A DNA stretch of 64,000 bases, taken from positions 77,424 to 141,423 of the forward strand of contig DASVEE010000045.1 in the NCBI GenBank assembly GCA_036380735.1, given 5' to 3'. The notes under the pieces were generated by a model. It was not told where the DNA came from and ran no database searches. It was given only the letters and a program-made list of their open reading frames with translations. The translations under genes were made by a program, and so were the position numbers. Numbering within the stretch: position 1 is the stretch's first letter; each line of letters opens with the position of its first letter. The DNA is from Thermoanaerobaculia bacterium. Lineage in GTDB: Bacteria; Acidobacteriota; Thermoanaerobaculia; Gp7-AA8. Below, in pieces: positions 3,647-53,287 of this stretch.

Positions 3647-3674
3647 GACCTTCCGTCAGGCGGTGCCGGTGCCT

Positions 3675-3841: not shown

Positions 3842-4414
3842 ATGTCTGAGCCGATCACGTCATATGAGGTGGCCCCGAAGACTCCTCTCGCGGGGAGTGC
3901 GGCGGCAGAAATTCGTGAGCAGGGTGAGATCACCCGGCGCAAGTTTCCTTTTGTGCTCACGACCGCCTGGCTCGCGCTGACCGCGGCCGTCGGCGGCCTG
4001 GCCGGCATCCTCGGGCGCTTCCTCTTCCCCAACGTTCTGTTCGAGCCCGTCCAGAAGTTCAAGGCGGGCCTTCCGTCCGACTACGCCTCGGGCGAAGTCG
4101 ACGAGCGCTGGAAAGACAAATACGGCATCTGGGTCGTGCGGCAGGAAGACGAGATCTACGCGCTCATCACCACCTGCACGCACCTCGGCTGCACGCCCAA
4201 CTGGCTCCCTTCCCAGAACAAGTTCAAGTGCCCGTGCCACGGCAGCGGTTATTACCGGAACGGCGTCAACTTCGAAGGACCGGCACCCCGCCCCCTGGAA
4301 CGCGCAAAGATCGCCATCGATACGTCCGACGGTCAGATCCTCATCGACAAGTCGGTTCAGTTTCACCATGAACGAGGTGAGTGGACGAATCCCGAGTCGT
4401 TTCTCAAGATCTAG
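3842..4414 (+). CDS. Rieske [2Fe-2S] subunit of a cytochrome bc-type complex
   Basis: CTHLGC ... CPCHGS Rieske boxes. N-terminal TM helix. Alternative TTG start at 3830. Confidence 0.9.
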   Translation: MSEPITSYEVAPKTPLAGSAAAEIREQGEITRRKFPFVLTTAWLALTAAVGGLAGILGRFLFPNVLFEPVQKFKAGLPSDYASGEVDERWKDKYGIWVVRQEDEIYALITTCTHLGCTPNWLPSQNKFKCPCHGSGYYRNGVNFEGPAPRPLERAKIAIDTSDGQILIDKSVQFHHERGEWTNPESFLKI

Positions 4415-6531: not shown

Positions 6532-6534
6532 CCC

Positions 6535-6637
6535 GGTTGTTGGTTGTCGGTTTTCGGTTTTCAGTGGAGACCGAAACCCGCAACACAACGTGAGCGACAA
6601 CTACCGACCGAAAACCGACAACCGAAAACCGACAACC
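6535..6637. repeat. Family-A heptamer palindromic repeat (CCGAMAA variant)
   Basis: Left arm ggttgttggttgtcggttttcggttttc, right arm gaccgaaaaccgacaaccgaaaaccgacaacc. Fills the gap between 5308..6531 and 6640..10023. Confidence 0.8.
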
Positions 6638-10865: not shown

Positions 10866-10946
10866 CGTTGTCCGTTGACCGTTTTCCGTTGTCCGTCTCT
10901 GCACGGGCGGCCGGAACGGAAAACGGACAACGGAAAACGGACAACG
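10866..10946. repeat. Family-A heptamer palindromic repeat
   Basis: cgttgtccgttgaccgttttccgttgtccgt / loop / acggaaaacggacaacggaaaacggacaacg, between the cupredoxin gene and ctaD. Confidence 0.85.
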
Positions 10947-13532: not shown

Positions 13533-13620
13533 GCGTTGGCCGTTTTCCGTTTCCGTTGTCCGTGCCGCGCTGGTGCACGAGCGGCAGCACGGACAACGGA
13601 AAACGGACAACGGAAAACGC
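13533..13620. repeat. Family-A heptamer palindromic repeat
   Basis: gcgttggccgttttccgtttccgttgtccgtgccgc / loop / gcggcagcacggacaacggaaaacggacaacggaaaacgc, between ctaE and the subunit IV gene. Confidence 0.85.
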
Positions 13621-14287: not shown

Positions 14288-14320
14288 GCGTTGTCCATTG
14301 TCCGTTTTCCGTTGTCCGTC
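14288..14320. repeat. Family-A repeat, solo left arm
   Basis: gcgttgtccattgtccgttttccgttgtccgtc with no adjacent right arm. Lies between ATG 14279 and GTG 14321 of the next small ORF. Confidence 0.75.
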
Positions 14321-14560
14321 GTGAGACCCGTCGCTCTCGCGGTGATCGCTGTGCTGCTGATGCCGGTGGTCGCCTGGGCCTGCCCCGTCTGCTATGGTTC
14401 GCCCGACGATCCGCTCGTCAAGGCGACGAATAACGGCATCTGGGTGCTCCTCGGCTTCATCGCCTTCGTGCAGATCGGTTTCGTCGCCCTTTTCATCACC
14501 TTCTGGCGCCGCGCCAAGGCCCAGCAGCGCTTCAAGGAGCAGTTCCACGTCGTCAAATAG
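14321..14560 (+). CDS. Small exported/membrane CxxC protein in the oxidase cluster
   Basis: From GTG 14321 it reads (M)RPVALAVIAVLLMPVVAWA-CPVCYGS, then one TM helix. The alternative ATG 14279 would add a repeat-encoded N-terminus. Confidence 0.4.
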   Translation: MRPVALAVIAVLLMPVVAWACPVCYGSPDDPLVKATNNGIWVLLGFIAFVQIGFVALFITFWRRAKAQQRFKEQFHVVK

Positions 14561-14565
14561 ATAGA

Positions 14566-14627
14566 GTTGTACGGTTCTGTCGTCCGCCGAGCGCAGCACG
14601 GAAAACGGACAACGGAAAACGGACAAC
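14566..14627. repeat. Family-A heptamer palindromic repeat (degenerate left arm)
   Basis: gttgtacggttctgtcgtccg..gcgcagcacggaaaacggacaacggaaaacggacaac, upstream of ctaC. Confidence 0.75.
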
Positions 14628-21419: not shown

Positions 21420-21510
21420 CATAGGACGAATAGGACGAATGGGACAGATAGGACGGATGGGACTCTCATCGGTCCTATTCGTCCTATAGGTCCCATTCGT
21501 CCTATCGTTC
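21420..21510. repeat. Family-B nonamer palindromic repeat (compact full copy)
   Basis: Left arm cataggacgaataggacgaatgggacagataggacggatgggac, 7-nt loop, right arm ggtcctattcgtcctataggtcccattcgtcctatcgttc. Confidence 0.9.
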
Positions 21511-22856: not shown

Positions 22857-22948
22857 GGCGTTGTCCGTTGACCGTTGTCCGTGGTCCGTGCTGCGCGGTG
22901 CGCCGGGCGCAGCACGGAAAACGGACAACGGAAAACGGACAACGGACC
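22857..22948. repeat. Family-A heptamer palindromic repeat
   Basis: ggcgttgtccgttgaccgttgtccgtggtccgtgctgcgc / loop / gcgcagcacggaaaacggacaacggaaaacggacaacggacc. Confidence 0.85.
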
Positions 22949-24309: not shown

Positions 24310-24459
24310 GAACGATGGGACGAATGGGACGAATAGGACCTACAGGACCGATAGGCCTGCGAACGTTGCGCCCTCACCGCGGGTGGGCTCGGTGGTGGGG
24401 TGGGGACCTACCTATCTGTCCTATTCGTCCTATAGGTCCCATTCGTCCCATCGTTTTCC
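24310..24459. repeat. Family-B nonamer palindromic repeat (long-loop copy)
   Basis: Left arm gaacgatgggacgaatgggacgaataggacctacaggaccgataggcc, ~46-nt loop, right arm ggacctacctatctgtcctattcgtcctataggtcccattcgtcccatcgttttcc. Confidence 0.9.
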
Positions 24460-24466
24460 CTGTCCC

Positions 24467-24505
24467 CAAAACAAAAAAGCGGGCGCGCCCTTCGGACGCG
24501 CCCGC
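24467..24505 (-). terminator. Rho-independent terminator of 24530..25084
   Basis: On the minus strand: GCGGGCGCG-tccgaaggg-CGCGCCCGC followed by TTTTTTGTTTT. Confidence 0.7.
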
Positions 24506-24529
24506 TCCACAGTCACTACCTGACGCGCG

Positions 24530-25084
24530 CTACGCCGTCTGCTTCAACGTCCCCTCCGCGGCCTTCTCCGCGGCGCGGCGTGCCAGCGTCTCCGCCGACG
24601 GCTTCCGCCCCCGCCCCAGCGCGCGGCGCATGTCCGCCACGTGCGGCACCAGCTCCGCGCAGTCGCGGCGCTTGGCCAGGCGGCGCGCCAGCGCGTACAC
24701 CGTCAGCGTCTCGACGCCGGCCTTGTGCCGCGCCGCGCGCACGCTGTGGCGTACGAAGTGCGCCAGCGCCTCCAGCTCGTCGGCCAGCGGACCGAAGGCA
24801 TCCGCGTAGCTCATCAGGTCGCGGATCTCGTCTGCCGTGAGGCTTTGGCCGCGGGACAGCGTCTTCTGATGCGTCATCGCCATCGTCACCAGGGCGACGA
24901 ATTCCGGCGGCACCGAGGCCGCGCTGGCCATTTGTTGTGTCGCCAGCGTCTCGGGAACCACAAAGTACGGGATGGCAGCACGCATGGCACGCAACTCCTC
25001 CACGCGCGCCATCGCCAGGGCGGAGTACGGAAGCGGGGACGGTTCCACGACTGCAGACACAACTTTCTCGTTGTTGTTGCTCAT
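24530..25084 (-). CDS. Hypothetical protein (184 aa)
   Basis: AAGGAG SD sequence 6 nt before the ATG, and the terminator sits directly downstream. No family recognised. Confidence 0.6.
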   Translation of the reverse strand: MSNNNEKVVSAVVEPSPLPYSALAMARVEELRAMRAAIPYFVVPETLATQQMASAASVPPEFVALVTMAMTHQKTLSRGQSLTADEIRDLMSYADAFGPLADELEALAHFVRHSVRAARHKAGVETLTVYALARRLAKRRDCAELVPHVADMRRALGRGRKPSAETLARRAAEKAAEGTLKQTA

Positions 25085-25118: not shown

Positions 25119-25796
25119 TCAGAGAAGGCAGATCGAAGAAAGAGGCGGAGCGCGCCCCTGCGAGGTACGCCTCGGGACCTTGACGGCGGCCGGACGGGGA
25201 GCCCGTCGCCGTCGTTTGAGCAAGACAGAGATGCGATCGCCGACGCGCGGCGTCAGCACCGTGAGGAACGGCCGAATCGCCGTCGGTCGTGGTGTGAGCG
25301 TGATGGTGAGCGGCCGCCGCGCCTCGTTCTCCGGCACCAGCGCGCCCGACTTCAGCCCCGCGAGGACGTTCTCGTGCATCGAGAAGACGGTCCCGGACGC
25401 CTCGTTGAGCGCCACGAGCATCTGGAACCAGCGCGTCGTCGTGGCGAGCATCGCCACCGGCGCGCCGGCGCCGCTCTCCGGCTCACGCACCACGCATGCG
25501 GTCCACTCATCCAGCGCCTCGGAGACGATCGCCAGCCGCGACGCGGCCACGCGCATGCGCGCCTCCGCGTGCTCCAGACTCTTCGAGCTGCGGATCGGCA
25601 GCCACCCCGCCGAGCGCTCCGACTTGGCGGCGGTCCTGAGCGCGGCGGTGATGAGCCGCCTGGAAGAGTCGAGCGCCCGTTGCGCCCGCCGCATCGAACG
25701 CACCCACGCCGCTGCCGGACGCGCCCCCTCGGGGCGTCCCTCCCGGCAGTTTGCGGTGGCGCTCTTGAGCGCCCGGGCATGGTTGCGCTTGCTCAT
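25119..25796 (-). CDS. Hypothetical protein (225 aa)
   Basis: ATG 25796 sits 7 nt after a -10 box. The central part looks protein-like; the ends are Arg-rich. No family recognised. Confidence 0.45.
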   Translation of the reverse strand: MSKRNHARALKSATANCREGRPEGARPAAAWVRSMRRAQRALDSSRRLITAALRTAAKSERSAGWLPIRSSKSLEHAEARMRVAASRLAIVSEALDEWTACVVREPESGAGAPVAMLATTTRWFQMLVALNEASGTVFSMHENVLAGLKSGALVPENEARRPLTITLTPRPTAIRPFLTVLTPRVGDRISVLLKRRRRAPRPAAVKVPRRTSQGRAPPLSSICLL

Positions 25797-25803
25797 CGGA
25801 GAC

Positions 25804-25832
25804 AATATCGGTCAATCATGTGTCGGTGTCAA
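25804..25832 (-). promoter_or_regulatory. Sigma70-type promoter, probably leaderless, for 25796 gene
   Basis: On the minus strand: TTGACA (25832-25827), 17 nt, GATATT (25809-25804), 7 nt, ATG. Confidence 0.5.
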
Positions 25833-25860
25833 GTACCAAGTGAACATTTATGTCGCTGAG

Positions 25861-26421
25861 TTGCTTTCGGGTCGAATGGAGGAGGCTTCAAGGCGTCGCG
25901 CGGACAGATCTTTCTGTCCAGCGAAGGTCTCAATCTCCTCGCCGACGGCAGCGATCTCCTCGCCGAGGGCAGCGATTCCTCGGGTCGAAGGGACATTTCT
26001 GTCCGTCGAGGGTAGCGATCTCCTCGCTGAGGGCAGGTATCCCTCGGATCGAAGGCACATTTCTGTCCGTGGAGGGGAAAGATCTCCTCGCCGAGGGCAG
26101 GTATCCCTCGCATCGAAGGGATTTTTCTGTCCGTGGCGGGGAAAGATCCCTTCGCTCGCAGGGAAACATCCCTCGCGCGAAGGCAAAGATCCCCTCGACG
26201 GGGAGAAACCTCCCTTCGGTCGAACAGAAACGTCCCCTCAAGGAGGAGAAACGTCCCCTCAAGGAGGAGAAACGTCCCCTCAGCGAGGAGAAATGTCACG
26301 TCGAGGCAGGGGATCGGTGCCGTCAACGAGGGGAAACGTCCCCTCAGCGAGGGGAAAGGTGCCTGCGGAGCAGGGGAAACGTGCCTTCGGTGGAGGCAAA
26401 GGTCCGCTCGCCGAACGATTC
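25861..26421. repeat. Array of ~26 tandem 21/22-nt mini-hairpin units (non-coding, not CRISPR)
   Basis: Hand-parsed units, e.g. cgTCCCCTCagcGAGGGGAaa. Three 64-nt higher-order copies at 25953-26144. All six frames are open across the region. Confidence 0.85.
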
Positions 26422-26433
26422 GACGGCCGGCGG

Positions 26434-26679
26434 TCAGGTCTTCAAGCGCCGGATGGCCGAGTCGGTAAAGTCCGCGAGCAGGTCGTGCACGCTGACGTCG
26501 AGCGCACGCGCGAGCCGCACGATTACGCCCAGGCCCGGAGCCTTCAGCCCGCGCTCCATCTCCCCGACGAAATTCGCGCTCAAGCCGGTCGCTTCAGCGA
26601 CGGCCTCCTGCGAGAGTCCCCGTTCGTGCCGCACGCGCCGCAGCGCCTTCCCGAACAGCTCCGCCACGGTTTGCACCAT
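26434..26679 (-). CDS. XRE-family helix-turn-helix regulator
   Basis: LRRVRHERGLSQEAVAEATGLSANFVGEMERG is a classic Cro/C1 HTH. Internal ATG 26679 chosen. Confidence 0.8.
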   Translation of the reverse strand: MVQTVAELFGKALRRVRHERGLSQEAVAEATGLSANFVGEMERGLKAPGLGVIVRLARALDVSVHDLLADFTDSAIRRLKT

Positions 26680-26693
26680 TGCATTCCACGCTA

Positions 26694-26728
26694 AAGTTGT
26701 GGGATGATGCCACCATCTTAAGTTGTGG
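26694..26728. promoter_or_regulatory. Candidate operator: direct repeat AAGTTGTGG x2 in divergent intergenic region
   Basis: AAGTTGTGG at 26694-26702 and 26720-26728. Each is preceded by CCAC, giving CCAC-N9/11-GTGG dyads. Confidence 0.35.
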
Positions 26729-26737
26729 TGCGCACAC

Positions 26738-27013
26738 ATGAGCAACGTGACGAGCTTTCGAGGCAAGGACGATCTGACCGCCCGTCAACCGCTGACGATC
26801 GAGCTGCCGCGCTTCCTCATCCGCGCCTTCGAGCAGCAGCTCGCCGCCGCCAACGCCGACGCGACGGACGAGGACTACGTCACCCTCGAAAACTTCGTCG
26901 AGTTCCACCTCGCCAAACAGCTCTCGATCGCCGACGTCGCCAACCTGGAGCGCCAAGTCCCCGGCATCAGCGAAGCGGTATGGCAGTGGCTGAGCGAGAT
27001 CAAGGGGGAGTGA
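26738..27013 (+). CDS. Hypothetical small acidic protein (91 aa), divergent from XRE
   Basis: ORF in the track. No clear SD sequence and no family recognised. Confidence 0.45.
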   Translation: MSNVTSFRGKDDLTARQPLTIELPRFLIRAFEQQLAAANADATDEDYVTLENFVEFHLAKQLSIADVANLERQVPGISEAVWQWLSEIKGE

Positions 27014-31591: not shown

Positions 31592-31703
31592 GGAACGATG
31601 GGACGGATAGGACCTATAGGACAAATAGGACGAATGGGACGGATACGGTTTTCTGTCCCATAGGTCCTATTGGTCCTATAGGTCCTATCCGTCCCATCGT
31701 TCC
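31592..31703. repeat. Family-B nonamer palindromic repeat
   Basis: ggaacgatgggacggataggacctataggacaaataggacgaatgggacggatac / ggttttc / tgtcccataggtcctattggtcctataggtcctatccgtcccatcgttcc. Abuts the addA stop. Confidence 0.9.
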
Positions 31704-34700
31704 TATTGATCCCACTCCACCACCCGGTCGTTATCCAGATCGATGTACCACAGCAGGCCGCCGCAGGGGCGGCCCGTGATCGCGGAAACGGCGGCGCAGT
31801 AGCTGGCGACCTGGTCGCGGTGCGTGTCGGTGGGCGTGCCGCTCTTGTAGTCGATGACGACGTCGCGGCCGTTTTCGCGGATGAGGCGGTCGAGGCGGCG
31901 CTCCACCACTTCACCATCCTTTTCGTAGCGCACGATGAGCTCACGGCCGAGGGTCTGCGCTCGGGCGAGGCGCGCGCGCATGGGGGAGCGCGCCACCGTC
32001 GCCAGGCGGGAGCGCACACGGGTGATGGTGTCGTCGTCCGCTGCGACTTCGAGCGCGAGGCGGCGCAGCAGCGGCTCGGGGTCGGCGTTGCCATCCCAGC
32101 GCTCCAGCACGCGGTGCAGCAGGACGCCCGCGGTGCGGTGGCGCGAGCCGGAACGCCGCATGGCGATGTCCGACGGCGCCAGCGGCTCGGTGGAGAACTG
32201 CGGCGCGGGGATCGACGACTCCACGATCGGCGACGATGCGAGTTGCGCTTCCAGCGCCGCATCGCGCAGGCGGCGCCGCGTGTGCTGCTCGGTGTCCGAC
32301 AGCGCGAGGCGCTCGTAGGCCACCGTGCCCAGCGGAAGAGTAAGCAACGTGCGGCCGGTCTCCTGAGGCGCTTCGAAGGCGAACGCCTCCCGCACGTATT
32401 TCGCGAAGCCGACGTTCTTCGCTTCAGGGTTCCAGACGAAGACGACTTCCGACTTGGCGCGCGTGACGGCGACGTAGAACAGGCGCCGCGTTTCCGCTTC
32501 GTCGCGCGTGGCGCGCAGCTTCTTGAGCTTCTCCTCGCTGCCGCACGTGCGGAAGTTCGCGGAGATGGATTCGGCGCGGCCGGCCATGACCAGGCTGCGC
32601 GGCTCTTCCACGGTGAACAGTTGCAGCGTGTCGTTGGACGACGCGGGGAAGGCGAGGTCGGGGAGGATCACGCTCTCGAACTCCAGCCCCTTCGCCGCGT
32701 GCACCGACAGGATGCGGACGGCGTTGCGCGATTCGTCGGCGAGGCTCGGCTCCATCTCGTCCGGCTCGCTGCGGCGGCGCGTGATCTCGTCGACGAACTG
32801 CCGCACGGATCCGCCCGTGGTCTGGTCGAACTCGAAGGCGATGGCGCGGAGATGCTCGAGGTGCCGCTTGTGGCGCACCCCGTCCGCCGCCGCGTCGTAC
32901 ACCGCCTCGATGCCCGAGGTGGCGACGACGAGGTCGATGAGCCCGGAGACGGTGAGGTGCGTCGAGGCTTCCCGATAGCGCGTGAGCGTCTCGCGGAACG
33001 TCTGCCAGACTGTCGGCGGCGTGGTCCGTTGTTCGTTGTCCGTGGTCCGTTCCGTGGAGCCGCCGGCGATCTCCGCATCGGTGAGCGCAAAGTACGGCGT
33101 GCGCGCGGCGGAGTACTCCGCGCCGGGATCGAACGGAAAGGCGATGGCGCGCAGCACGGCGAGGAGGTCGACCGGCGCGCGGCGGTCGAGGAACAGCCGC
33201 GTCGGCGGCAGCACGTAGTCGATGCCGTAGCGCTCCAGCGTGTCGAGGTAGTCGTCCAGCTTCGTCAGGCGGCGGAAGAGGATGGCGAAGCGCTGCAGGT
33301 CGCGCTCGCCGCCGTCGCGATTCGCGCGGATCCACTCGGCGATGACCTCGCCCTCACGGAAGAAACGATCGGCGCGGTCCTCATGATCCGCATGCAGGAA
33401 CGTGACGCGCGCCTCGAGCTCGCGCGCCGGTTTGCTCTTGCCGGCGCGCAACGGGAGATACGCCGGGCGGAAGACGTTCGGATCGTGCGGCATCTCGGGG
33501 AAGAGCTGCGTGAACAGCGCGTTGATCGTGGCCAGCAACTCGGGATCGCTGCGGTACTGATCCTCGATCCTCCGCCGTTCCGCCCCCGCCGCGATCAGCT
33601 CCTCGGTCATCTGGTAATACGTCTCGGGATCGGCGCGCCGGAAGCCGTAGATCGACTGCTTCGGATCGCCGACGACGATGGTGCGGCCCGGCACGTACGT
33701 TCCCGAAGCGTCGCGCGCGAGCCGCTCGATGATGCGCGCCTGCGTGCGGTCGGTGTCCTGGAACTCGTCGACGAAGATGTAGTCGAACTGCGCGCGCGCC
33801 CGTTCGAGCACGCTCTCGTCGTCGAGCACCGCCAGCGTGCGCAGGAGCAGATCATCGAAGTCGACGACGCCGAGCTTCCGCTTCTCCTGATCGAGGTAGT
33901 CGACGAAGCGGCGCCCCATCGAGACGAGCGCCATCGCCGCGCGGTGGCTGGCCAGGCGGTCGTGGATCGAGCGGCCCTTGTCGCCGCAGCGGAGGTAGCG
34001 CAGCGCTTCCTTGAGCACGCCGGTCCGCGGCAGGTTCGCTTCGCGGATCGACGCGGCGATCGGCTGCAGGTAGTCGATCCACGCATCGATCGATCCGCGC
34101 GGCGGCTCCTCCGACTGCAGGTATTCGAAGACGCGGCGGGCGTCGACGTCCTTCACCTCAATCGCGTTTGTCTTCCGGATGACGGCGATGGTTTCGACGA
34201 GATCGGGCTCCACCTCGTCGAAGCTGCCGAACTCGTATTGGTCCTCGTTGAGCAGGTCGCGCCGATCGAGCAGCGCGAAGACGAGGTCGCGGATCTGGAA
34301 CAGGTAGCCGACGTGCGCAAACAGGATCTCCCACTCGCGCACGATCTCCTCGGTCGGATGGACGCGCGTCTCCTCGTCCACCCAGGCGTCGTAGAGCTGC
34401 CCGTAGAGCAGCGTGCGCTCGAAGCCTTCGATGATCTTGAACTGCGGATCGAGGCCGGCCTCGATGGGGAAGAGCCGGAGCAGCGATTGGCAGAAGGAGT
34501 GGATCGTCTGCGACCGCAGCGAGTCGATGCGCGAGAGCTGCTTCGCGCACGCGCGGCGCCACTGCTCGCGTTTCTCCTCCGGCATCTCGACGAGCGGGCG
34601 CGGCGAGCCGATCGGCCAGACGACGCGCTGCCCTGCGAGAGCATCATCAAGATGTGCGTCGAGCTCCTGCAGCGCGTCGTGGATGCGGTCGGCGATCTCG

Positions 34701-44548: not shown

Positions 44549-44642
44549 GCGCGTTGTCCGTTTCCCGTTGTCCGTTGTCCGTGCTGCGCGCGGCGTACAG
44601 CACCAGCACGGACAACGGACAAGGGAAGACGGACAACGAACG
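44549..44642. repeat. Family-A heptamer palindromic repeat between two divergent sigma54 promoters
   Basis: gcgcgttgtccgtttcccgttgtccgttgtccgtgctg / loop / cagcacggacaacggacaagggaagacggacaacgaacg. Confidence 0.85.
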
Positions 44643-53186: not shown

Positions 53187-53287
53187 GGTTGTTGTCGGTT
53201 TTCGGTTTTTGGTTTTCGGTGCTGCGCCCTGCGAGGATCTACGCGTAGCGCAGCACCGACAACCGACAACCGACAACCGAAAACAAC
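53187..53287. repeat. Family-A palindromic repeat (CCGAMAA variant) between convergent cheB and 53287..53652
   Basis: ggttgttgtcggttttcggtttttggttttcggtgctgcgc / loop / gcgcagcaccgacaaccgacaaccgacaaccgaaaacaac. Confidence 0.85.

Follow-up and report, generated by a model that had tools for sequence, protein, structure and literature searches.

A two-turn-spaced tandem array beside a two-gene operon of Thermoanaerobaculia is a candidate DNA platform for multi-site protein loading

A stretch of 64,000 nucleotides from a Thermoanaerobaculia bacterium (assembly GCA_036380735.1, contig DASVEE010000045.1, positions 77,424 to 141,423; referred to here as the window) contains a tandem array of 21/22-nt dyad-symmetric units. 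The array occupies a 628-nt gap (25806-26433) between two minus-strand genes and lies directly upstream of a two-gene operon. What is this array, and does it act as DNA or as RNA? An initial annotation had described it as a row of mini-hairpins with covarying arms and had offered three ideas: a nucleoprotein or operator platform with a site every two helical turns, a transcribed chain of hairpins acting as a sponge, and recombinogenic DNA. Analysis of the window and of homologous loci showed that the array is real and that its linkage to the operon is strict; period and position persist while the sequence turns over, orientation is immaterial, and RNA-type signals are absent. The first of the three ideas is favored by the conservation of period and position over 21 arrays. 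We give an even chance to the reading that the array would serve as a helically phased multi-site platform of double-stranded DNA, belonging to a self-contained module in which the array is followed by promoter, gene 1, gene 2, and terminator, and would load a DNA-binding protein next to the promoter.

The array and its parts are as follows (coordinates of the window; no strand is assigned):

25890-26421: about 24-25 tandem units, each 21/22 nt long, non-coding (Tandem Repeats Finder (TRF), unit parse, and unit alignment)
25902-25919 (-123 to -106 from the start codon): perfect inverted repeat GGACAGA-tctt-TCTGTCC with 7-bp arms (inverted-repeat scan)
25953-26155: promoter-proximal sub-array, a 64-nt higher-order repeat made of three different subunits of 21, 21, and 22 nt, 3.2 copies (TRF)
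26188-26400: distal sub-array of simple 21/22-nt units of the CGTCCCCTCAGCGAGGGGAAA type (TRF and repeat search)

Segmentation of the array yielded 24 units over 511 bp with a mean period of 21.29 bp. TRF reported period 21 together with the 64-nt higher-order repeat at 25953-26155 (87% matches, score 294), as well as a period-21 array of 7.9 copies at 26190-26357; the autocorrelation of the array peaked at lag 64. Identical unit copies start at 26231 and 26252 in the distal sub-array. TRF and segmentation agree on the location and the strict 21/22 period that had been claimed, and the 21+21+22 architecture was recovered by TRF. The claimed count of about 26 units beginning at 25861 was too high: about 24 units are recognizable and 25861-25889 is not repeat-like. 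Alignment of the units gave the consensus nnTCCCCTCGnCGAGGGGAAA, which is dyad-symmetric, as had been proposed, and sets a pyrimidine run opposite a purine run (TCCCCTC-nnn-GAGGGGA). Units abut head to tail and the absence of unique spacers was confirmed. The stop codon of an XRE-type gene lies 13 nt from the array; this distance and that to the operon promoter both hold.

The earlier conclusion that the array is neither coding nor a clustered regularly interspaced short palindromic repeats (CRISPR) array stands. No codon-position GC signal was detected at 25800-26400; the signal was clear in the three flanking genes. A coding repeat was rejected on this ground and since the periods 22, 43, and 64 are not multiples of three and stop codons occur in three frames. 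Hence, the statement that all six frames are open was incorrect: three of six are free of stops, and the other three carry 2, 5, and 3. A CRISPR array was rejected on account of the head-to-tail units and the lack of a cas domain in Pfam scans of 10 flanking open reading frames (ORFs), the rest of the window not having been scanned for cas. Dispersed palindromes of the REP/BIME type were rejected because the unit pattern is confined to the array (9 of 10 matches in the 64-kb window) except for one chance-level match at position 198. No Rfam family was matched in the whole window at the gathering threshold, and the window contains no tRNA.

Homologous loci were collected, 21 distinct ones via gene 1 and three via gene 2 alone (L028-L030); L003 and L004 represent two assemblies of one locus. 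Upstream DNA was usable at 22 distinct loci; 20 arrays were segmented, 19 entered the folding and motif counts, and 16 the covariation test. Genes 1 and 2 were adjacent and co-directional at all recovered loci, adjacency having been tallied for 18 loci with a gene 1 homolog plus the three from gene 2, and no other neighbor gene was conserved across the compared loci. Of the 22 loci, 21 have a tandem array directly upstream of gene 1, the distance from array end to start codon being 24-245 nt; linkage of the array to the two downstream ORFs, which had been proposed as a test, was thereby strongly confirmed. All 20 segmented arrays had a period of 20.6-22.2 bp (mean 21.46), corresponding to two helical turns, and comprised 10-27 units over 206-584 bp. 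Often two subunits are combined into a higher-order repeat of 41-44 nt, or three into one of 64-65 nt. The module loci are located in contigs of 20-300 kb among housekeeping genes.

The sequence of the array is specific to each locus. Examples are GGATTTCCCGGTTCACGCACT in L001, TCAGTTTGAGGCCGCCGCACC in L003, CATCGATCCCAGCCTCGTCTAC in L023, CCTTCTCCGGAGAAGG... in L020, and CGATGTCAAtTTGACATCG... in L028. In BLAST comparisons between arrays, one paralog pair was clearly similar and two other pairs shared only a match of 25-40 nt. Four different units were found at the four loci L007, L008, L009, and L012 of a single metagenome-assembled genome (MAG), SMAG_U3390. As far as the assemblies show, the module is present in several copies per Thermoanaerobaculia chromosome, each with its own array sequence. 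A core of ATCG, CGATC, or ATCGAT occurred once per one to two units in 13, 10, and 7 of the 19 arrays, respectively, as compared to 3, 0, and 0 control regions. Most arrays with this core belong to a single protein clade (L006-L025); the clade of the window has idiosyncratic palindromes. A recognition core common to the arrays and set in variable flanks would produce such a pattern.

Two further properties of the arrays were examined. GATC was above expectation in 15 of 19 arrays (16 copies vs 1.2 expected in L017, 13 vs 1.2 in L025, 7 vs 1.8 in the window) and not enriched in the remaining four, with no copy in L001 and a single copy each in L003, L013, and L029. This over-representation may bear on methylation-dependent binding; an epigenetic switch of the Dam type was set aside, the excess being missing from those four arrays. 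Intrinsic curvature was likewise rejected as a conserved property. A wedge model, whose result is not relied on, predicted bending for L003, the window, L016, and L022 and none for period-22 arrays.

The arrays were analyzed for signs of function as RNA. Local folding of the window array was better than that of shuffled sequences, with whole-gap z-scores of -7.0 and -11.6, and the two competing pairing registers previously pointed out do have similar energies. The arms of aligned window units paired in 70.1% of cells as compared to 69.4 ± 1.9% when the 3' arms were dealt among units; 214 of 500 shuffles paired at least as well, and the covariation score was 0.219 vs 0.217 with redistributed arms. 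In an alignment-free test, the own hairpin of a unit reached -4.6 and -5.1 kcal/mol on the two strands and a two-unit chimera -5.4 and -5.2 kcal/mol (P = 0.97 and 0.55). Both tests were null, so that covarying arms and compensatory change had to be given up; the pairing of the window arms stems from one palindromic consensus, of which all units are variants. A palindromic repeat consensus can thus mimic compensatory RNA covariation, which calls for caution. Within-unit covariation was absent from the 16 arrays, the smallest P being 0.03 among about 30 tests. Strand preference in folding was balanced (the sense strand gave the better fold in 9 of 19 arrays and the antisense strand in the other 10), and little or no hairpin potential was found in L023, L025, L010, and L030, which fold no better than shuffles at a pair span of at most one unit. 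The idea of a transcribed hairpin chain, or sponge of Shine-Dalgarno and anti-Shine-Dalgarno pairs, is not supported by these results. The GGAGG/CCTCC pairs are peculiar to the window array. A sponge RNA of the CsrB/RsmZ type was rejected: the loops of the window units are GCT, CCT, or CAT, A(N)GGA is absent, and no Rfam match exists in the window.

The array of L017 (3464-3875) consists of two inverted arms of 204 nt that are 71% complementary and lie 4 nt apart; therefore, the orientation of the units relative to the gene is not essential. Beside the arm junction lies a perfect 20-bp palindrome, TTGAGCGATCGATCGCTCAA (3649-3668), and this inverted array could form a large cruciform. An inverted-repeat scan revealed many dyads with a center of 0-1 nt (CCATCAAC/GTTGATGG and CCTCCTTCTCC/GGAGAAGGAGG). 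Palindrome arms reach 8-11 bp in L013, L015, L020, and L028, and arms of 15 bp adjoin the -35 box in L006. Loopless dyads of this kind would fit a dimeric protein on duplex DNA and would suit a hairpin loop poorly. In the window, the inverted repeat at 25902-25919 lies at the promoter-proximal edge of the array and perfects the dyad found where subunits join; a role in nucleation or high-affinity binding is possible for this site. The best palindrome is found at the proximal edge in L001, L006, L016, and L030 as well, not in all loci. As a general rule this placement was rejected, since it applies to only about 5-6 of 19 loci.

Judged by pairs of related modules, the arrays evolve faster than the adjacent proteins. 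L003 (4965-6334) and L012 (3952-5325), both from SMAG_U3390, share a 1.38-kb segment with 89% identity, which begins 36 nt before the start codon and ends shortly beyond the terminator. The gene 1 products are 97% and the gene 2 products 76% identical; the arrays and the -35 region are unrelated. The segment is a mosaic, with about 98% nucleotide identity in gene 1 and 72-87% in the 5' half of gene 2, which suggests gene conversion between paralogous modules, halting at the array. The arrays of L010 and L019 (87% and 88% protein identity) are unrelated by BLAST; those of L023 and L025 (87% and 86%) are still related. Furthermore, assemblies that are about 99.5% identical differ by whole units (129, 84, 132, and 88 nt; L003/L004/L007, L011/L023, and L014/L025), reflecting either rapid copy-number polymorphism or collapse of short-read assemblies. 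The idea of recombinogenic DNA fits these whole-unit differences but leaves the conservation of the array unexplained.

The operon downstream of the array is composed as follows (all on the minus strand):

25804-25832: sigma-70-like promoter TTGACA-17 nt-GATATT of the two-gene operon (10 of 12 matches; 1 found vs 0.3 expected)
25119-25796: gene 1, encoding a 225-aa orphan protein (GC codon-position pattern and homologs)
24530-25084: gene 2, encoding an orphan protein of 184 aa, all-helical and ending in a tail rich in Ala and Lys (homologs)
24476-24508: strong intrinsic terminator closing the operon, 15-bp stem and T run (terminator scan)

A promoter-like site is located between the array and gene 1 in the window, L001, L003, and L012, and none was found at the distal end of the arrays. 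The ATG of gene 1 at 25796 lies 7 nt past the -10 hexamer; therefore, the mRNA is probably leaderless. In many loci, including L010, L011, L013, L015, L016, and L027, the start codon lies 7-9 nt past the -10 hexamer, implying leaderless mRNAs, and a leader with a GAGG-type Shine-Dalgarno sequence is found in L001, L003, L012, L017, and L022. At several loci the -10 hexamer is GCACCG-like, not TAnnnT. A stem similar to that of the terminator (GGGCGCGTCCG...CGC) follows gene 2 in L001, L006, and L012.

The gene 1 product contains 33 Arg residues and has a net charge of about +24. AlphaFold2 (AF2) predicted three long helices in residues 30-150 with a predicted local distance difference test (pLDDT) score above 90, followed by an Arg-rich tail of low confidence. 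Alignment of homologs revealed the tail motif PRIILAPRP..RRRR.PRP....GRAPP, in which RRRR, PRP, and GRAPP are invariant; the region that AF2 trusts least is the most conserved part of the protein (window 25119-25300). The C-terminus usually has a Cys 2-3 residues from the end (...SSICLL). The ...SQGRAPP stretch loosely resembles the TGQGRTP hook of H-NS. An H-NS or AT-hook reading of QGRAPP was rejected, with no match to Pfam Histone_HNS at E<=10 and only 9-10 residues following the motif; L028-L030 have L, T, or R in place of the Q. The gene 2 product is all-helical in the AF2 model, and both operon proteins have basic tails.

Homologs of gene 1 were found only in Thermoanaerobaculia (Acidobacteriota) MAGs and in soil metagenomes, 17 in a word-indexed search and 147 clusters at 50% identity in an exhaustive profile search. 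Gene 2 is the better conserved partner, with more than 629 homologs at about 55% identity. Sequence profiles of Pfam, NCBIfam, PADLOC, PHROG, and PDB gave nothing significant for either protein, with no match in Pfam or NCBIfam even at E=10 or E=1, and Foldseek searches with both AF2 models against PDB and BFVD gave no meaningful structural match. A mobile-element, plasmid, or phage origin was rejected: tblastn found neither protein in 72,556 plasmids, none was found in viral contigs, and no conserved integrase or transposase is located nearby.

We infer protein binding, the identity of the binder, and an effect on the adjacent promoter along the following lines. About 24 operator-like dyad-symmetric sites, one every two helical turns, would act in cis as double-stranded DNA. 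The array would load many copies of a DNA-binding protein onto a regularly phased lattice beside the operon promoter. One or both products of the adjacent operon would be the probable binder; they are candidates because of the charge of the gene 1 product and the basic tails of both. The extended complex may autoregulate or titrate the operon, following the logic of iterons, parC, and sopC.

Plasmid iterons (R6K, pPS10, F, P1) are direct repeats of about 17-22 bp with a two-turn spacing of about 22 bp, located by the promoter of the gene for their binder; a more perfect inverted version at the promoter serves as operator, and the repeat sequence is replicon-specific. The arrays described here resemble them in period (a mean of 21.29 bp for the window array and 20.6-22.2 bp over the 20 segmented arrays), in their position by the operon promoter, and in their locus-specific sequence. 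They differ from iterons in that no Rep protein (Rep_3, RepA, pi, TrfA, winged-helix) was matched and no plasmid context exists; furthermore, there are 10-27 copies instead of 3-9, four or more modules per chromosome, and mostly palindromic units. R1 parC and pBtoxis tubC lie upstream of a two-gene operon that they autoregulate, and the phased repeats of these loci and of F sopC nucleate a large nucleoprotein complex. The sopC locus of F is built of 12 repeats of 43 bp, all of which contain an inverted repeat of 16 bp (PMC3177203), and iteron plasmids have been reviewed (PMC4980987). Like sopC, several of our arrays have units of 41-44 bp with one palindrome of 16-22 bp each. Unlike sopC, parC, and tubC, the modules come with neither an NTPase motor (ParA, ParM, TubZ) nor a binder of the ParB, ribbon-helix-helix (RHH), or TubR type; they are chromosomal and multi-copy, and their sequence turnover is much faster.

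Tandem operators of small cooperative repressors (MetJ met-boxes, omega heptads of pSM19035, BldC direct repeats), which control an adjacent promoter, have units of 7-9 bp in 2-10 copies, bound by RHH or MerR-like proteins. A variable number of short tandem sites by a promoter is common to these operators and the arrays, and cooperative binding is characteristic of the former. The units of the arrays, in contrast, span two helical turns and are far more numerous, and the candidate binders are without a known fold. The parS of pSM19035 is treated in PMC9499535.

Several points weigh against a platform bound by the operon products. Neither protein has a known DNA-binding fold or homology to Rep, ParB, ParR, helix-turn-helix (HTH), or RHH proteins. 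The gene 1 products of L003 and L012, 97% identical beside unrelated arrays, make it unlikely that the gene 1 product is a sequence-specific reader. As for gene 2, the N-terminal differences between paralog pairs fall into a generally variable region, whether or not the arrays differ. No dyad of at least 6 bp other than the 6-bp ATCGAT was found in the repeats of L023, L025, and L029. L027, on a contig of 1.2 kb, is the exception among the 22 loci and has only about two degenerate units. Moreover, all loci come from metagenome assemblies, in which repeats can be mis-assembled. At L027 (1-461), two or three TGATCGA-containing sites about 22 nt apart are located upstream of the promoter; this may be a minimal or decayed state.

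A tentative extension, with a chance well below even, is that the modules form a new class of chromosomal system in which two orphan basic helical proteins would build a filament on a private, fast-diversifying, two-turn-phased array by means of a protein fold new to DNA binding. The arrays would then diverge so that the 4-5 paralogous modules of a genome stay orthogonal. Such a system would be neither a replicon nor a partition system nor a known toxin-antitoxin (TA) or defense type; it might, for example, be an addiction or defense module or a chromatin-like insulator or anchor. As far as family, structure, and literature searches reached, the earlier statement that no element with this architecture has been described stands; full-text literature searches turned up no account of arrays like these from Thermoanaerobaculia or Acidobacteria.

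Among the alternatives, a by-product satellite survives best, unlikely as we consider it. The array would be functionless, with copies regenerated by a local mutational driver such as slippage or fork stalling at a protein-bound palindromic operator, and the period would simply be inherited. The whole-unit differences between nearly identical assemblies, the composition of arrays from locally amplified sub-arrays, a sequence turnover outpacing that of the proteins, and a genome rich in other short-period repeats all agree with such an origin. It accounts poorly, however, for the persistence of arrays of 206-584 bp in all but one locus even where gene 1 products are about 40% identical, for a period held within narrow limits although indels are visibly tolerated, and for the long perfect palindromes that several arrays keep in every unit.

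It is distinctly unlikely that the array is an insulator or contingency element, which would shield the often leaderless promoter from read-through, as serial weak terminators or a bound roadblock, or would serve as a phase-variable spacer whose length tunes promoter output. The window array directly follows the XRE stop codon with no other terminator in between, and four minus-strand units score as terminators with a hairpin and a T run; L001, L003, L006, and L028 likewise have a co-directional gene whose end lies shortly before the array, and copy-number polymorphism would suit a tunable spacer. Most arrays, however, lack a T run after the dyad, and the upstream gene is divergent in L029 and L030. 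One terminator would suffice for shielding, and the two-turn period would be left without a reason.

We regard an RNA-level element as very unlikely. Under this explanation, the array would be transcribed as a chain of mini-hairpins that either soaks up a protein or ribosomes as a sponge or constitutes an RNA antitoxin of the type III kind, processed by a protein encoded next to it. Type III TA loci are ordered as promoter, repeats, terminator, and endoribonuclease toxin gene (PMC3401426), with 2-6 repeats of 34-45 nt. The modules share with toxIN, cptIN, and tenpIN the repeats directly upstream of a small protein gene, the locus-specific sequence, and the dispersed, multi-copy loci (PMC3401426), and both the Arg-rich tail of the gene 1 product and the good folding of the window array would agree with such an element. 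However, the promoter comes after the array, and scans of the window, L001, L003, and L012 found no terminator between array and gene, a lack that extends to most loci. The units are 21-22 nt long in 10-27 copies, and with half of the L017 array inverted not all of them can be sense. Strand bias and covariation are missing, and some arrays form no hairpins; no Rfam family and no A(N)GGA loop motif were found. The gene 1 product, a predicted three-helix bundle with a disordered tail, matched no model of ToxN/AbiQ, CptN, or TenpN in Pfam and PADLOC.

Highly improbable, finally, is a true replication or partition element, in which a replicon, integrated or cryptic, would have the arrays as its iterons or centromere and genes 1 and 2 as a divergent initiator or centromere-binding pair: a spacing of 21-22 bp as in iteron origins, several arrays with sopC-like units of 42-44 bp and one inverted repeat of 16-19 bp each, and an order resembling parC-parMR and tubC-tubRZ speak for it, but no Rep, ParA, ParM, TubZ, or ParB homolog is present, the loci lie among housekeeping genes of large contigs, with at least four copies in a genome, neither protein occurs in the plasmids and viral contigs searched, and no DnaA box or AT-rich unwinding element was seen on inspection, no formal scan having been run.

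The gene on the far side of the array is the following:

26434-26766, minus strand: XRE-type gene, probable start at 26679 (Pfam HTH_31, E=1e-14)

It had been considered a partner of the array. Comparison of neighborhoods showed that it is not conserved in this position: an XRE gene is found near only three related loci, in varying orientation and distance, and its homologs occur together with a divergent small ORF near array modules in L001 and L005/L009. In the window, the XRE gene shares a 58-nt control region (26680-26737) with an orphan ORF of 96 aa that runs divergently on the plus strand (26723/26738-27013). The direct repeat AAGTTGTGG occurs twice, at 26694 and 26720, 26 nt apart and nowhere else in the window; this repeat pair is probably the XRE operator. 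The XRE protein as binder of the array was rejected, since the gene is near so few loci and its own operator-like repeats are absent from the array.

Two other repeat families were observed in the window. The first consists of composite intergenic palindromes of tandem 7-mers, in which (CGTTGTC)n and (ACGGAAA/ACGGACA)n flank a central GC-rich hairpin from opposite sides; they are located at 6534-6637, 10866-10946, 13540-13619, 14289-14627, 22859-22947, 33020-33051, 44552-44638, and 53191-53284 and have the look of a REP-like family assembled from short tandem repeats. The second family is built from tandem 9-mers, ATAGGACGA/ATGGGACGA facing GTCCTATNG/GTCCCATTC, and is found at 21421-21505, 24315-24448, and 31597-31714, furthermore at 1490, 3688, 19231, and 39472, and in L003 at 4253-4330. 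One copy of the 9-mer palindrome is located just downstream of the operon terminator and another just upstream of the 21-nt array in L003.

If the array is a platform of the kind proposed here, the Thermoanaerobaculia, abundant and barely studied soil Acidobacteriota, would carry hundreds of copies of a compact module, gene 2 alone having more than 629 homolog clusters; array and proteins would have remained together through repeated replacement of the array sequence. These would provide a natural series of orthogonal sets of array and protein, in which the evolution and specificity of multi-site nucleoprotein platforms could be studied. The two protein families, which have no known fold relatives, would be candidates for a new mode of DNA binding, and arrays that keep their period while their sequence is not kept would allow structural constraint to be separated from sequence constraint.

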